From positions 44,599-108,598 of the forward strand of contig JAEYON010000068.1 of assembly GCA_023411645.1 (NCBI GenBank): DNA of 64,000 nucleotides, read 5' to 3'. Both the position numbers and the translations under genes were made by a program. Below the pieces are notes generated by a model that was given only the letters and a program-made list of their open reading frames with translations, did not search any database and was not told the DNA's origin. This stretch comes from Bacillota bacterium (GTDB lineage: Bacteria; Bacillota; Clostridia; Acetivibrionales; DTU013). Each line of letters starts with the position of its first letter. Within the stretch, counting starts at the first letter, position 1. Below, one piece after another: positions 37,903-45,392 of the stretch.

Positions 37903-39378
37903 ATGAGCAAAGTCAATTTATCCTTGCCGGAGGTGCAGATCCGGGAAATCCGTATTAACTCAATAACCGGTTACCAGGGCAGTGCCAGGGAATTGGTTGA
38001 CTGCTCCCGCCGCGGACTGAAGGACAAAAACCGATCTTTCAGCCAGTGCCTTGGATGTGCAACCTCCAAGGCGGCTTGTATGACAATTATGGTTCAGGAC
38101 GGCGCGGTCATCAGCCACGGACCGGTGGGCTGCTCGTCCTGCTATCACGAGTTTGCCTTTACCTACCGTGTCAATTCACCGCTGCGGGGCGTGGAAAATC
38201 CTACCCAACGCAAAATCTACTCCACCAATCTGAAGGAGAAGGACACAGTATACGGCGGTGGAAAAAAGCTGGCAAAGACAATCCGTGAGGTTTATAACCG
38301 CACACACGCCAGAGTAATCTTTGTGCTGACAACCTGCGCGGCGGGCATAATCGGCGATGATGTGAACAGCATCTGCGATGAAGCGGAGGATGAACTGGGT
38401 GTTCCCGTGGTGGCGATTTTCTGCGAAGGCTTCAAGTCCAAGGTTTGGACGACAGGTTTTGACGCAGCCTACCACGGCATTGCGCGCAAGTTGATTGAGC
38501 AGCCCCGCCGGCGAAGAAATGACATCATCAATGTCATAAACTTTTGGGGATCTGATATTTTTAAAGACTGGTTCGCGGAATTCGGTGTGATACCCAACTA
38601 TATCACACCCTACTCCACACTCGAAAGCATCCGTTGGTCATCCGAGGCGGCAGCGACGGTGCAAGCTTGCTCGACGCTGGGCTCCTATCTGGGTGCCGCG
38701 CTGGAACAGCAATTTGGTGTTCCCGAGCTGCCGACAGCACCGCCTTACGGCATCGCCCAAACCAACCGCTGGTTCCGCGCCCTTGGCAAGTTGCTGGGAA
38801 AGGAAGATGTGGCCGAACGGGTGATTGCTGAAAAGAGGGAAAAATATCTGCCCCAGATAGAAGCAATCCGGGAAAAGCTCACGGGGAAAACCGCCTATGT
38901 CACAGCAGGCGCCGCCCATGGTCATGCTCTTCTGGGTGTGCTGGCAGAACTTGGCATAAAAGCTCAGGGAGCCGCCATCTTCCACCATGACCCGCTTTAC
39001 GACAACGGCGTGCCCGAGGGCGATCAGTTGGCTCAGCGAGTAAGCGACTTTGGCGATGTTCCCAACTTCAATGTCTGCAACAAGCAGGAGTTTGAACTGG
39101 TCAATTCGCTCAACCGTATCCGCCCTGACCTTCTTCTGGCACGGCATGGCGGCATGACACTCTGGGGCGCAAAGCTCGGCATCCCGTCGCTGCTCATCGG
39201 CGATGAACACTACAGTATGGGATACGAGGGATTGGTCAAATATGGTCAGCGAATAATTGAAACGCTGGAAAATGATGAATTTGTCAAGAATCTGGAGCGG
39301 CACGCCATCAACCCCTACACCAAATGGTGGCTGTCTCAGGAACCATATACATTTTTGCAGGGAGGTTCGGGTAAATGA
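37903..39378 (+). CDS. Nitrogenase-like component 1, alpha (NifD/NifE-like) subunit
   Basis: 491 aa with SD AGGAGGAG. ISHGPVGCSSC and VLTTCAAGIIGDDV match NifD P-cluster Cys contexts. By-eye alignment also places VQACSTLGSY and GDEHYSMGYEG at the NifD Cys275 and His442 cofactor-ligand positions. Confidence 0.85.
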   Translation: MSKVNLSLPEVQIREIRINSITGYQGSARELVDCSRRGLKDKNRSFSQCLGCATSKAACMTIMVQDGAVISHGPVGCSSCYHEFAFTYRVNSPLRGVENPTQRKIYSTNLKEKDTVYGGGKKLAKTIREVYNRTHARVIFVLTTCAAGIIGDDVNSICDEAEDELGVPVVAIFCEGFKSKVWTTGFDAAYHGIARKLIEQPRRRRNDIINVINFWGSDIFKDWFAEFGVIPNYITPYSTLESIRWSSEAAATVQACSTLGSYLGAALEQQFGVPELPTAPPYGIAQTNRWFRALGKLLGKEDVAERVIAEKREKYLPQIEAIREKLTGKTAYVTAGAAHGHALLGVLAELGIKAQGAAIFHHDPLYDNGVPEGDQLAQRVSDFGDVPNFNVCNKQEFELVNSLNRIRPDLLLARHGGMTLWGAKLGIPSLLIGDEHYSMGYEGLVKYGQRIIETLENDEFVKNLERHAINPYTKWWLSQEPYTFLQGGSGK

Positions 39379-40718
39379 GCAAAGTCGAATTGATAGAACA
39401 GGAGCGTTACGTCTGCGCTATTGGGGCTCTGCAAAGCGTGGTTGCTATTCCCCGTGCCGTGCCCATTTTGCATTCCGGCCCCGGGTGCGGGGACATGGTT
39501 CAGGGCTTCTTTGGGCACTCCACCGGATATGCTGGAGGCAGCACCTCTCCATGCACAAATTTTTCAGAAAAAGAAGTAGTGTTTGGCGGCATCGATCGTC
39601 TGCGGCAAATCATTGCCAACACATACAAAGTATTGGATACGGATTTACAAGTGGTACTTACAGGCTGCACGGCGGGCATAGTAGGCGACGATGTAGATAG
39701 CCTCGTGGAGGAGTTTCGCAGCGAGGGCAAACCCATCGTGTCTGTAGAAACGGCTGGATTCAAGTGCAATAACTTTGAGGCGCACAGCTTGGTGGTTAAT
39801 GCAATCATCGATCAGTATGTGGATGGTTTTTCTGAAGAGAATCCTGCATGCAGTGAAAAGAATACAGTGAACCTGTTTGCCTCCCTTCCATACCAGGACC
39901 CGTTCTGGAAAGGAAACCTCGCTGAATACAAGCGGCTGCTTGCCGGTATCGGGCTCAAGGCTCAAGTACTGTTCGGGCCGCAGTCTGGCGGAGTAAAGGA
40001 GTGGCAGCAGATTCCCCGTGCGAACTTCAATATCCTTATTTCCCCATGGTATGGACTGCCTATTGTCGAGAACCTGGAACAAAAGTATGGTCAGCCATTC
40101 ACACATTTTATGCATATTCCTATTGGGGCGAACGCAACAGAAAAATGGCTTAGACAGGTCATTGCCTTCGCCAGGGAGCAGGGTGCGGAAATTGATGAGG
40201 AAAAAGCCGAAGCCTTTTTACGCAGTGAAATTCATGCCTATTATGAAGAAATTGACAGCCTGGCTACCTTCTTGTTGGAATTCCGCTACGGACTGCCGAA
40301 TCATGTTCATATTTTCCACGACGCAGGATATGTTCTGGGCCTATCCAAGTTTCTTCTTCACGAGGTTGGGGTAGTGCCCAAAGAGCAATTTGTTACCGAT
40401 AATACACCGGAGCGATTCCATGAAGGGATAATCGCAGATATAAAGAGCACTTCCGATAAGCGGGACATCCCGTTGTTTTTCGAGTCGGATGCAGGACGGG
40501 CGCAAGACATTCTGCGCGGCATTTCCCATAGCGGTCGCGGACTCATTATTGGCAGCGGCTGGGAAAAGGAACTGGCCGCAGAAAAGAATACGGACTTTCT
40601 TACTGCGGCGCTGCCATCTTCTTACCGTTTGGTGCTTACAACCAACTACGCCGGTTTTAGCGGCGGATTGCGTGTGATTGAGGACATTTACAACACGGTT
40701 CTGCCGACGTACCGATAG
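39375..40718 (+). CDS. Nitrogenase-like component 1, beta (NifK/NifN-like) subunit
   Basis: 447 aa. Overlaps the upstream stop by 4 nt. YVCAIGALQS, ILHSGPGCGDMV and VLTGCTAGIVGDDV match NifK P-cluster Cys contexts. Confidence 0.85.
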   Translation: MSKVELIEQERYVCAIGALQSVVAIPRAVPILHSGPGCGDMVQGFFGHSTGYAGGSTSPCTNFSEKEVVFGGIDRLRQIIANTYKVLDTDLQVVLTGCTAGIVGDDVDSLVEEFRSEGKPIVSVETAGFKCNNFEAHSLVVNAIIDQYVDGFSEENPACSEKNTVNLFASLPYQDPFWKGNLAEYKRLLAGIGLKAQVLFGPQSGGVKEWQQIPRANFNILISPWYGLPIVENLEQKYGQPFTHFMHIPIGANATEKWLRQVIAFAREQGAEIDEEKAEAFLRSEIHAYYEEIDSLATFLLEFRYGLPNHVHIFHDAGYVLGLSKFLLHEVGVVPKEQFVTDNTPERFHEGIIADIKSTSDKRDIPLFFESDAGRAQDILRGISHSGRGLIIGSGWEKELAAEKNTDFLTAALPSSYRLVLTTNYAGFSGGLRVIEDIYNTVLPTYR

Positions 40719-40727
40719 GAGGCCGCT

Positions 40728-41063
40728 ATGAACGCACGGATTGCTTTCGCCAGTACGGGCGATTATATTGATCAGCACTTTGGCTCCGCACGGTATTGGC
40801 AGGTGTACGATCTTGCAGAAGATGGAACCTGCCGGCATGTTGAAACCCGGAGGACACAGGCCAAATGTCAGGGAAACTGCGAAGGCGGTTTTGACCACTT
40901 GCTCAGGACGCTGGAGGACTGTGAAGCCGTATTCGTAAGCAAAATTGGTCAATCCGCAGCGGCGTTTATGATTGGCCGCGGTAAGCGGGTATTTGAGGCG
41001 GCGGGGGCAATCGATGAAATTATTGATCAAATTTCGGGTGAAAACCTGTTGGAGGAGGGCTAA
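40728..41063 (+). CDS. NifX/NafY/NifB-C-terminal-type FeMo-cofactor-binding domain protein
   Basis: 111 aa. RIAFASTGDYIDQHFGSARYWQVYDL...AVFVSKIGQSAAAFMIGRGKRVFEA is the typical dinitrogenase cofactor-biosynthesis domain pattern. Confidence 0.8.
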   Translation: MNARIAFASTGDYIDQHFGSARYWQVYDLAEDGTCRHVETRRTQAKCQGNCEGGFDHLLRTLEDCEAVFVSKIGQSAAAFMIGRGKRVFEAAGAIDEIIDQISGENLLEEG

Positions 41064-41066
41064 ACC

Positions 41067-44462: not shown

Positions 44463-44477
44463 AAACGGAGTACTATA

Positions 44478-45335
44478 ATGAGCGATAAGCAAATCAGACA
44501 GATTGCCATTTACGGCAAGGGTGGCATCGGGAAATCCACTACCACCCAAAACTTAACAGCGGGCTTGGCCGAAAGCGGCAAACGCGTAATGATAGTCGGG
44601 TGTGACCCCAAGGCAGATTCCACACGTCTGCTGCTGGGCGGCTTGGCACAAAGCACTGTGCTGGACACCCTGCGAGAGACTGGTGATGATGTTGCTCTTG
44701 GGAATATCATGCGCGATGGATACCTTGGAACAAGGTGCGTTGAGTCAGGTGGGCCTGAACCCGGTGTGGGTTGCGCCGGACGCGGCATCATCACCTCAAT
44801 AGGCCTTTTGGAACAGCTTGGAGCATACACAGACGATCTGGACTATGTGTTTTACGATGTGCTGGGTGACGTAGTCTGCGGCGGCTTCGCCATGCCGATC
44901 CGTGAGGGCAAGGCAAAGGAGATTTATATCGTCGCTAGCGGCGAGATGATGGCGCTGTATGCCGCGAACAACATCTCAAAAGGCATCGCCAAATATGCAC
45001 AGAAAGGCGGTGTCCGTCTGGGTGGCATTATCTGCAACAGCCGCAACGTCGATCGGGAGCATGAGCTGCTTAAGGCATTTTGCGCTGAATTAGGCACACA
45101 GCTCATCTATTTTATCCCGCGTGATAATGTGGTGCAGCGTGCGGAAATTCGCCGCAAAACGGTGATTGAGTTTGAGCCGGAATCCCATCAGGCCAAAGAA
45201 TATCGCAGCCTCGCCAAAGCAATAGACGAGAACACTTTATTCACCATCCCTAAGCCTATGTCCCAGGAACGGCTTGAAGAAATCCTGCTGGAATATGGCC
45301 TGATGGATTCGGTACCTGACGATTACAGGATTTAA
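44478..45335 (+). CDS. Nitrogenase-like iron protein (NifH-like reductase)
   Basis: 285 aa. [17 protein letters not shown] (P-loop), [12 protein letters not shown] and [13 protein letters not shown] ([4Fe-4S] Cys ligands). Very close to the canonical NifH pattern. Confidence 0.9.
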
Positions 45336-45356
45336 GAAAAATGGCGGATATGATTT

Positions 45357-45392
45357 ACCCCGCGAAGTCACATAACTGTGATTTTGCGGGGT
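45357..45392 (+). terminator. Terminator-like hairpin ending the nitrogenase-like operon
   Basis: ACCCCGC (45357-45363) pairs with GCGGGGT (45386-45392), with inner TCACA/TGTGA pairing. The trailing TATTTATA is a weak U-tract. Confidence 0.55.

Follow-up and report, generated by a model that had tools for sequence, protein, structure and literature searches.

What does a nitrogenase-like enzyme do when its genes are packed together with a methionine-type importer and lie directly behind genes of sulfur amino-acid metabolism? The question is raised by an operon of eight genes (37903-45335, + strand) in a stretch of 64,000 nucleotides from a Clostridial, spore-forming lineage, the whole of which we call the window. 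The window is part of a metagenome scaffold (ENA ERZ28598533, scaffold_325; its public annotation is our locus L001). In order, the operon encodes a NifD-like (D) and a NifK-like (K) subunit, a NifX-like carrier, a NifB-like radical SAM enzyme, the importer components MetN, MetI and MetQ, and a NifH-type Fe protein (H). The nearest named relatives of D, from Acetivibrio thermocellum and A. clariflavus, are 81% identical. A preliminary description, made from the DNA letters by themselves, had read the locus as a sulfur-salvage system like methylthio-alkane reductase (Mar) rather than one for N2 fixation. Here we show that the sequence evidence instead points to a Group IV-A (Nfa-type) core, and argue that the operon probably belongs to a response to sulfur starvation.

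Results

Family assignment of the D and K subunits

Gene identities were assigned with Pfam and NCBIfam models, and a check of the open reading frames (ORFs) bore out the layout described earlier: eight co-directional, tightly packed genes with two 4-nt overlaps (ATGA at 39375-39378, TTGA at 42854-42857) and remaining gaps of 9-51 nt, bounded by two hairpins that were both recovered (Table 1). Among solved structures, the best matches of D and K are MarD and MarK of Rhodospirillum rubrum (E 5e-127 and 5e-120). Identity nevertheless amounts to 38.7% for D in BLASTP and 43% for K, and R. rubrum MarD, used as a search seed, recovered a close-knit clade of 75-100% identical sequences that takes in Firmicutes (heliobacteria, Pelosinus, Clostridium puniceum, Thermoanaerobacterium) and leaves window D outside. 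We therefore rejected the locus as a Mar ortholog, and the Mar-like, Group IV-C identity first given to it does not hold. D is instead 67% identical over 490 amino acids (aa) to NfaD of Endomicrobium proavitum, a bacterium of the termite gut whose Group IV-A enzyme is known as 'Group IV nitrogenase', and K 65% identical to its NfaK over 443 aa, while the NifB-like and NifX-like proteins reach 55% and 42% against their counterparts in that organism.

The cysteine pattern points the same way. The E. proavitum NfaD in our set (P0458) was retrieved by a search seeded with a relative, L066, whose cysteine numbering fits that of a 2026 review, which lists residues 50/53/60/78/81/146/257 for NfaD and 13/37/97 for NfaK (PMC13474568). 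The window proteins carry the same pattern offset by one and with equal spacings, at 49/52/59/77/80/145/256 in D and 14/38/98 in K. The exact NfaD numbering is found in the D proteins of L052, L053, L066 and L026, and the pattern is absent from all other representatives of the 50%-identity clusters. A neighbour-joining tree of 122 sequences separates the family of D proteins at least 62% identical to window D from the core Mar clade, each with a bootstrap of 100/100. Core Mar is the nearest neighbouring clade, and a grouping that joins the family, core Mar, the loci at about 55% identity and P0122/P0123 receives 75/100. Because of the identity to NfaD and NfaK, the cysteine fingerprint and the separate clade, the locus is by its sequences a Group IV-A system. 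A preprint also assigns 'MarHDK-like' genes from A. thermocellum and further Clostridia to group IV-A (PMC10418091).

To locate the ligands, D and K were formally aligned with HMMER to the solved MarDK of R. rubrum (9FMG, 9D9U), and motif positions were used as well. Cys52, Cys77 and Cys145 of D correspond to the P-cluster ligands Cys66, Cys91 and Cys158 of MarD, and Cys14, Cys38 and Cys98 of K to Cys32, Cys56 and Cys121 of MarK, so that the three P-cluster contexts seen by eye in each subunit are upheld. At the cofactor, Cys256 of D aligns with MarD Cys270 and NifD Cys275, Arg414-His415 with MarD Arg428-His429 (the cofactor-ligand histidine and its neighbouring arginine), Trp182 with Trp195 and His361 with His375. 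The cysteine proposed earlier as the equivalent of NifD Cys275 is thus correct. A histidine does stand at the NifD His442 position (His436, equivalent to MarD His450), but the Mar ligand is His429, which here is His415. Cys49, Cys59 and Cys80 are extra cysteines in D, Val181 of D replaces MarD His194, and Ser34 of K replaces MarK Cys52. Mar activity requires Cys270, His429 and Trp195, and the Mar cofactor-ligand set is common to nearly all Group IV enzymes (PMC13474568); the ligands alone therefore do not define Mar.

Both subunits are also far from nitrogenase proper. D scores 175.9 bits against a cutoff of 486 (TIGR01862) and 135 against 653-654 (nifD), K scores 67.6 against the nifK cutoff of 427, and both fall below every nitrogenase model cutoff tested (NifD/VnfD/AnfD and NifK/VnfK/AnfK). 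The helix around NifD Gln191/His195 is absent, D reading VWTTGFD instead of SQSLGHH. The view of the system as nitrogenase-like but non-canonical is sustained.

An Fe protein of the nitrogenase lineage

For H the outcome is different. Its P-loop (residues 13-20) and both [4Fe-4S] cysteines (Cys99 and Cys134) are in place, as had been noted, and it passes the NifH equivalog model TIGR01287 with 459.3 bits (cutoff 394.35). With Clostridium pasteurianum NifH it shares 77% identity (467 bits), whereas its score against MarH (9fmg_D) is only 289 bits. Placement with bona fide nitrogenases, which the preliminary description had held to speak against its own reading, is thus found for H and not for D and K. 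With the H of E. proavitum, which is of the MarH/NfaH type, identity is only 49%.

To see how far this pairing extends we turned to a genome scan, which yielded 80 related loci, 72 of them with a D at least 60% identical to window D; features were counted within about 10 kb. Among the H genes of the 80 loci, 41 are of NifH type (74-81% identical to C. pasteurianum NifH) and 10 are about 50% identical. Within the 72 family loci, the same 41 stand against six of MarH type, an example being the H of L048, one of the ten, which adjoins a D 71% identical to window D and scores 494 bits to MarH. Because of these two sets of H genes, a single D/K family appears, at the level of sequence, to work with two Fe-protein lineages. 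In 41 of the 72 loci the NifH-type H is the last cistron of the nitrogenase-like operon, and from this fixed place we infer that it serves the adjacent D/K pair. None of the Mar, Isr and DPOR/COR cores has been seen working with a nitrogenase Fe protein (PMC13474568).

The window H fits the description of the Clostridial 'pseudo-nifH' genes, which closely resemble true nifH, have no annotated nifDK, vnfDK or anfDK in the same genome, and are mostly found in Clostridia and in anaerobic habitats (Mise et al. 2021, PMC8597730). That paper assigns them no function and does not contain the word 'sulfur', whereas the window H ends a sulfur-linked operon.

Cofactor proteins and the embedded importer

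The NifB-like protein aligns end to end, from residue 6, with the solved single-domain archaeal NifB of Methanothermobacter (261 bits) and has CxxxCxxC at residues 18-25 and HCxxC at 240, without a fused NifX domain. The GTG start at 41115 is correct, because the CxxxCxxC motif falls within the 275-aa version. The public call of this gene (227 aa, L001) starts too late and would remove the radical SAM motif. With a whole-length NifB match and a NifX-type carrier, the earlier suggestion of a complex cofactor is supported.

MetN, MetI and MetQ/NlpA are encoded together, which is the composition of a MetNIQ importer. The best models are MetN (E 1.6e-87), MetI (E 3e-45) and the MetQ/NlpA Pfam family (228 bits), all under the NCBIfam equivalog cutoffs. 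The MetN match covers model positions 2-245 of 343, with only ABC_tran found in Pfam and no match to the C-terminal regulatory domain in the Pfam/NCBIfam scan; the ATPase has an N-terminal extension of 35 residues and lacks the C-terminal third of the MetN model. In Escherichia coli, that C-terminal domain mediates inhibition by methionine. MetQ keeps the motifs FFQHxPYL, IPNDxTNExRAL, NTN and SPYANI of solved methionine-binding MetQ proteins. The idea that it might import the organosulfur substrate rather than methionine is unsupported, because nothing in these conserved family motifs points to an altered ligand.

Sulfur genes around the operon and its relatives

The transsulfuration pair and the MetY homolog that had been named as context are both confirmed, the former by a MccB-like and a MccA-like gene immediately upstream of the operon, the latter at 17298, next to CysK (Table 1). 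The mccAB pair converts homocysteine to cysteine, and MetY uses methanethiol. Among the window ORFs scanned (a few, including one of 2959 aa, lay outside the scan), no glnB (PII)/nifI, amtB, nifEN or nifV was found, nor any gene for a corrinoid methyltransferase or RACo.

The same company is kept across the family. A mccB/mccA-like pair lies near D/K in 29 of the 72 loci, metNIQ in 19 and a MetY-like pyridoxal-phosphate enzyme in 45, with at least one of the three in 53; NifB-like and NifX-like genes are near D/K in 47 and 48 loci, respectively. The usual order, as in Kineothrix alysoides, runs metNIQ, mccB, mccA, DUF4418, FtsX, ABC ATPase, D, K, X, B, MetY, an SsuA/NMT1-type binding protein, permease, ATPase, H and RACo; corrinoid methyl-transfer genes, RACo among them, border many related loci. 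Between B and H, then, the window carries metNIQ, where most relatives have MetY with a Ssu-like importer. That the window order, DK-X-B-metNIQ-H, differs from the BHDK order of Mar is correct, but it is no peculiarity, since it recurs in L030, with DKXBH-metNIQ in L019 and DK-metNIQ-X-mccBA in L057.

In E. proavitum (CP009498.1, L082) the order is MetY-like, Ssu-like importer, NfaD, NfaK, a metQ remnant, NifX, mccB-like, mccA-like, NifB-like, NifX and H, with the mccB-like and mccA-like proteins 67% and 62% identical to the window pair. The sulfur context therefore holds also in an organism claimed to fix N2. The remnant, directly 3' of NfaK (L082, 12928-13200), encodes 90 aa that are 63% identical to the C-terminal third of window MetQ. 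Together with metNIQ in the relatives, it indicates that the embedded transporter recurs in Group IV-A loci and is probably old. Sulfur salvage, with the locus embedded in sulfur amino-acid metabolism, accordingly remains the best reading of the context.

One further locus, L064, carries on a single strand (2095-13000) core MarDK, metNIQ, a NifH-type H, NifX, NifB, a Group IV-A DK pair and a MetY-like gene. A single Fe protein and a single maturase apparently serve both nitrogenase-like cores, whose presence in one operon can be argued to mean a shared sulfur role with different substrates.

A leader rich in cysteine and methionine codons

Between the mccA-like stop (37494) and D lies a leader with the anatomy of an attenuator (Table 1). 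The operon has a promoter of its own, 48 nt upstream of a leader ORF with 9 Cys and, not counting the start codon, 9 Met. No other small ORF in the window combines 4 or more Cys with a Cys plus Met content of 25% or above. A CUGUG element lies 9-13 nt past the stop codon of the leader ORF, and an intrinsic terminator begins 13 nt past that codon; this hairpin was found by folding, as a simple terminator scan misses it. Pairing of the terminator is complete (100%) over 9 aligned loci, 6 of the pairs being compensatory. The alternative five-pair helix of CUGUG with CACAG is paired in 86% of cells among 9 related sequences, compared with 5-57% in slid controls, and includes 2 compensatory pairs (CUGCG/CGCAG in L011). 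Folding of the nascent transcript extends this helix into the stop-codon region, at -8.7 kcal/mol. From anatomy and conservation, we regard leader and terminator as a candidate attenuator that would sense cysteine and methionine.

Leader ORFs sharing the motif C-M-M-R-x-x-C-C, each followed by a homologous terminator, occur in about 10 loci. They stand upstream of D (L011, L027, L025), of MetY-like genes (L015, L035), of metNIQ (L079, L017, L072) and of ABC genes (L016, L017, L027). A riboswitch was dropped as explanation of the upstream hairpin, since Rfam gave no match there. A RiPP (ribosomally synthesised and post-translationally modified peptide) or a metal-binding peptide is a less likely reading of the ORF, given its place between promoter and terminator, its recurrence before different sulfur genes and the conservation of the terminator.

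Known sulfur controls in Clostridia are S-box and T-box elements. Rfam, searched over the whole window at gathering thresholds and over 33600-38100 at E up to 1, gave neither these nor any other element upstream of either the operon or the mccAB-like pair. In the literature searched we found no description of a Cys/Met leader with terminator in Clostridia. Cysteine-codon leaders have been described in Actinobacteria (Seliverstov 2005, PMC1262725) and, as polycysteine ORFs, in mycobacteria (bioRxiv 10.1101/834739). In these, too, a short Cys-rich upstream ORF governs sulfur genes by way of ribosome stalling, whereas the window ORF differs in its mixed Cys and Met codons, its Shine-Dalgarno sequence, its classical intrinsic terminator and its occurrence in Clostridia.

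Table 1. Coordinates of the operon, its leader and the sulfur genes within the window
Feature	Position	Strand	Details
CysK	16109-17041	+	TIGR01139, 476 bits, above cutoff
O-acetylhomoserine sulfhydrylase MetY	17298-18587	+	TIGR01326, 656 bits, above cutoff
Consensus promoter of the mccBA-like pair, own	35331-35359	+	
MccB-like (cystathionine gamma-lyase/homocysteine desulfhydrase-like)	35414-36589	+	
MccA-like (CysK/cystathionine beta-synthase-like)	36586-37494	+	
Sigma-70-type promoter of the operon	37522-37550	+	TTGACT, 17 nt spacer, TATACT, TG before -10; 10/12 matches
Leader ORF	37598-37756	+	52 codons, AGGAG ribosome-binding site; MNKHINTVNTVVCSVSAMCMMRVSCCISMSMMRMSCCTCMPMCCDNPIPKPA
CUGUG, 5' half of candidate antiterminator	37765-37769	+	pairs with CACAG 37775-37779 in terminator 5' arm
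Intrinsic terminator of the candidate attenuator	37770-37809	+	17-pair hairpin 37770-37806, U run to 37809
NifD-like alpha subunit, Group IV-A (NfaD) type	37903-39378	+	491 aa; Oxidored_nitro E 4e-87
NifK-like beta subunit (NfaK type)	39375-40718	+	447 aa; Oxidored_nitro E 8e-61
NifX/NafY-type cofactor carrier	40728-41063	+	111 aa; Nitro_FeMo-Co E 5e-19
NifB-like radical SAM enzyme, single-domain	41115-41942	+	275 aa, GTG start; Radical_SAM match
MetN-like ABC ATPase	41976-42857	+	293 aa; ABC_tran match
MetI-like permease	42854-43564	+	236 aa; BPD_transp_1 match
MetQ/NlpA-family substrate-binding lipoprotein	43599-44462	+	287 aa; NlpA/Lipoprotein_9 E 1e-67
Fe protein, canonical NifH type	44478-45335	+	285 aa; Fer4_NifH E 1e-126
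Terminal hairpin of the operon	45357-45392	+	16-pair stem, T-rich tail

Other features of the window and related loci

Several observations stand apart from the operon. In the window, a gene for a LysM cell-wall hydrolase (22290-23060) has a c-di-AMP riboswitch (23060-23218, - strand; 72.5 bits, gathering threshold 38) upstream of it. The 2959-aa ORF mentioned above is a single frame at 24206-33085, without a recorded Pfam hit in the public annotation. Two adjacent, paralogous sensor kinases of 851 aa with periplasmic-binding-protein domains (5661-10768) follow a GGDEF plus EAL response regulator and are unrelated to the operon.

In one related locus from a metagenome-assembled genome (L009), a D-like sequence at 131-1700, only 25% identical to window D, sits some 8 kb upstream of the Group IV-A genes and shows by eye motifs of V- or Fe-nitrogenase alpha subunits, e.g. 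SQSGGHHK. Some Group IV-A carriers may thus also possess a true nitrogenase.

Discussion

A probable sulfur-starvation operon and the weak points of this reading

We consider it probable that the operon is induced by scarcity of cysteine and methionine and that its Group IV-A reductase cleaves the C-S bond of an organosulfur compound. Transcription from the operon's own promoter would first cross the leader ORF. With charged tRNA-Cys and tRNA-Met plentiful, the ribosome would reach the stop codon and cover CUGUG, letting the 17-pair terminator form; with these tRNAs scarce, it would stall upstream, CUGUG would pair with the 5' arm of the terminator, and RNA polymerase would read through. By homology to the solved Mar system, the NifB-like enzyme would then build an [Fe8S9C]-type L-cluster, the NifX-like carrier would pass it to a D2K2 core that also holds P-clusters, and the nitrogenase-type NifH dimer would supply electrons while hydrolysing ATP. 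Gene context suggests that the D2K2 enzyme reductively cleaves an organosulfur C-S bond, whereupon the freed thiol or sulfide could be fixed by MetY and CysK, with the MccAB-like pair shuttling sulfur between methionine and cysteine and MetNIQ scavenging methionine or a near analogue in the same response.

Several points weigh against this reading. What has been published on the physiology of Group IV-A comes from E. proavitum and H. fasciatum and is confined to N2-dependent growth, reduction of acetylene and uptake of 15N2 (PMC13474568), and clustering with sulfur genes shows co-regulation, not chemistry. The Rhodopseudomonas palustris enzyme NflDK3, closer to Mar than the window enzyme, is inactive on all known Mar substrates. 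At the leader, the antiterminator is short (the five conserved pairs and the -8.7 kcal/mol of the extended form) beside a 17-pair terminator, so the switch remains a model; moreover, such a leader is present in only about 10 of the 80 loci and was not found upstream of the E. proavitum cluster, where a 48-aa ORF is Lys-rich. Sequence, finally, cannot separate the window Fe protein from a nitrogenase Fe protein. On expression of the counterpart operon in A. (C.) thermocellum, nothing specific was found in the literature searched.

Alternative functions

A functional methylthio-alkane reductase, which would turn dimethyl sulfide, ethyl methyl sulfide and (2-methylthio)ethanol into methanethiol plus methane, ethane or ethylene as R. 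rubrum MarBHDK does, seems unlikely to us. Its case could draw on the solved-structure matches, on the essential Mar residues kept in D (equivalents of Cys270, His429, Arg428 and Trp195), on core Mar as the nearest clade with 75/100 for the wider grouping, and on the methanethiol-using MetY found in the operon of 45 of the 72 relatives and, in the window, at 17298. Against this, the identities of D and K to Mar compare with at least 75% for true Mar orthologs, Firmicutes included; the family forms its own clade at a bootstrap of 100%; the Fe protein is not MarH-type; and neither MarK Cys52 nor MarD His194 is retained. Already at 65% identity, paralogs in R. palustris differ in substrate preference, and one at 52-56% has no known substrate, while the coexistence of core marDK and the window type in L064 argues for different jobs. 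Chemistry other than the cleavage of thioethers under the same sulfur control, for example C-S cleavage of a sulfonate (as by an isethionate reductase) or the direct demethylation or desulfuration of imported methionine, or of a methionine derivative, with MetNIQ as the importer, we likewise judge improbable. It would accommodate the SsuA/NMT1-type transporter that fills the B-to-H slot in most relatives and MetNIQ in that slot here, the adjoining mccAB-like pair with its route from homocysteine to cysteine, the corrinoid methyl-transfer genes (RACo) beside many loci, and the precedent of a Group IV relative, IsrBHDK, that cleaves a sulfonate; however, Isr has other cluster ligands and belongs to another group (IV-F), whereas the cofactor environment of window D is Mar-like.

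An alternative nitrogenase, whose main job would be to make ammonia from N2 (or from some other nitrogen oxide or species) while the sulfur genes are neighbours for another reason, is in our view very unlikely, even though D and K share 67% and 65% identity with E. proavitum proteins that have been tied to diazotrophic growth, to the reduction of acetylene and to 15N2 uptake, H shares 77% identity with the Fe protein of a true nitrogenase, and NifB and NifX are present. Acetylene reduction has also been reported in C. thermocellum (Bogdahn and Kleiner 1986, as cited in PMC8209448), but it was not ammonium-repressed according to the same source; ammonium-insensitive reduction would fit a nitrogenase-like enzyme outside nitrogen control. 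Mar, too, reduces acetylene without fixing N2, and the 2026 review doubts N2 fixation as the primary function of Nfa, noting that traces of nitrogen compounds in N2 and 15N2 gas from commercial sources could explain a substantial part of the nitrogen that was assimilated (PMC13474568). In the window, the operon has a Cys/Met-codon leader and no recognisable nitrogen signal, PII/NifI, AmtB, NifEN and NifV were not found among the scanned ORFs, the NifD residues for N2 reduction are missing (VWTTGFD for SQSLGHH), and D and K fall far under all nitrogenase model cutoffs. 

The sulfur-starvation reading might even extend to the family: it is possible, and we put it forward tentatively, that all Group IV-A enzymes, that of E. 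proavitum included, are primarily C-S cleavers of sulfur starvation, with acetylene and N2 reduction as side activity and a NifH-lineage Fe protein in Clostridia.

Relation to described systems

Set beside described systems, the window locus resembles NfaBHDK of E. proavitum most in its D and K identities, the extra-cysteine fingerprint, and its MetY-like, mccB/mccA-like and metQ neighbours, the last a remnant after K in E. proavitum. It differs from it in the type of Fe protein, in gene order, in a complete metNIQ, in a Cys/Met leader that was not found upstream of the E. proavitum cluster, and in the published role of the Nfa system, N2 fixation that is ammonium-repressed (PMC13474568). With MarBHDK of R. 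rubrum (Group IV-C) it shares the two-component design, six P-cluster cysteines, a Cys/His pair with Arg and Trp at the cofactor and a NifB-like maturase without NifX domain; Mar is induced under sulfur limitation and coupled to MetY, a trait in which the window is likened to it by its genes. The differences comprise the distant D/K in a clade of their own, the NifH-type Fe protein (289 bits to MarH as opposed to 467 to NifH), the DK-X-B-...-H order with NifX as a separate gene, Ser and Val in place of MarK Cys52 and MarD His194, and the extra Cys49 and Cys80. What it has in common with the Mo nitrogenase of C. pasteurianum (Group II) is the Fe protein, passing the NifH equivalog at 77% identity, the P-cluster cysteines and a NifB; it departs from it in D and K below the NifD and NifK cutoffs, in the absent Gln191/His195 helix, and in NifEN and NifV, not found among the scanned ORFs.

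'MarHDK-like group IV-A' genes have been described beside type I mlp clusters of Acetivibrio (Hungateiclostridium) thermocellum, whose D is the 81% relative, and of other Clostridia, and that preprint already notes the association of group IV-A with methionine and sulfur genes (PMC10418091). In comparison with those loci as given there, no corrinoid methyltransferase or RACo gene was found among the scanned window ORFs and metNIQ replaces the block of MetY and Ssu-like importer; the Fe-protein type and a leader attenuator are not mentioned in the searched portions of its text.

Implications

For the function of Group IV-A, the locus and its roughly 70 relatives set the family among genes of methionine and cysteine, in the window under candidate Cys/Met-sensing control, and the leader would bring Cys/Met ribosome-stalling attenuation to Clostridia. 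A. thermocellum, which has established genetic tools, holds an 81% identical ortholog, so that the function of Group IV-A is directly testable. The lack of genetically tractable hosts has been named as the main barrier for this group (2026 review, PMC13474568).

Across the 72 loci the nitrogenase-like core is accompanied by a NifH-lineage Fe protein in 41 and by a MarH-type one in six, a distribution that amounts to a natural experiment on docking specificity. As such H genes pass the NifH model, nifH surveys of anaerobic habitats probably count them as markers of diazotrophs. If the sulfur-starvation reading of Group IV-A is true, the window would hold a natural nitrogenase-type Fe protein that serves a non-nitrogenase partner, and most of the Clostridial 'pseudo-nifH' in gut, rumen and digester surveys would be explained.

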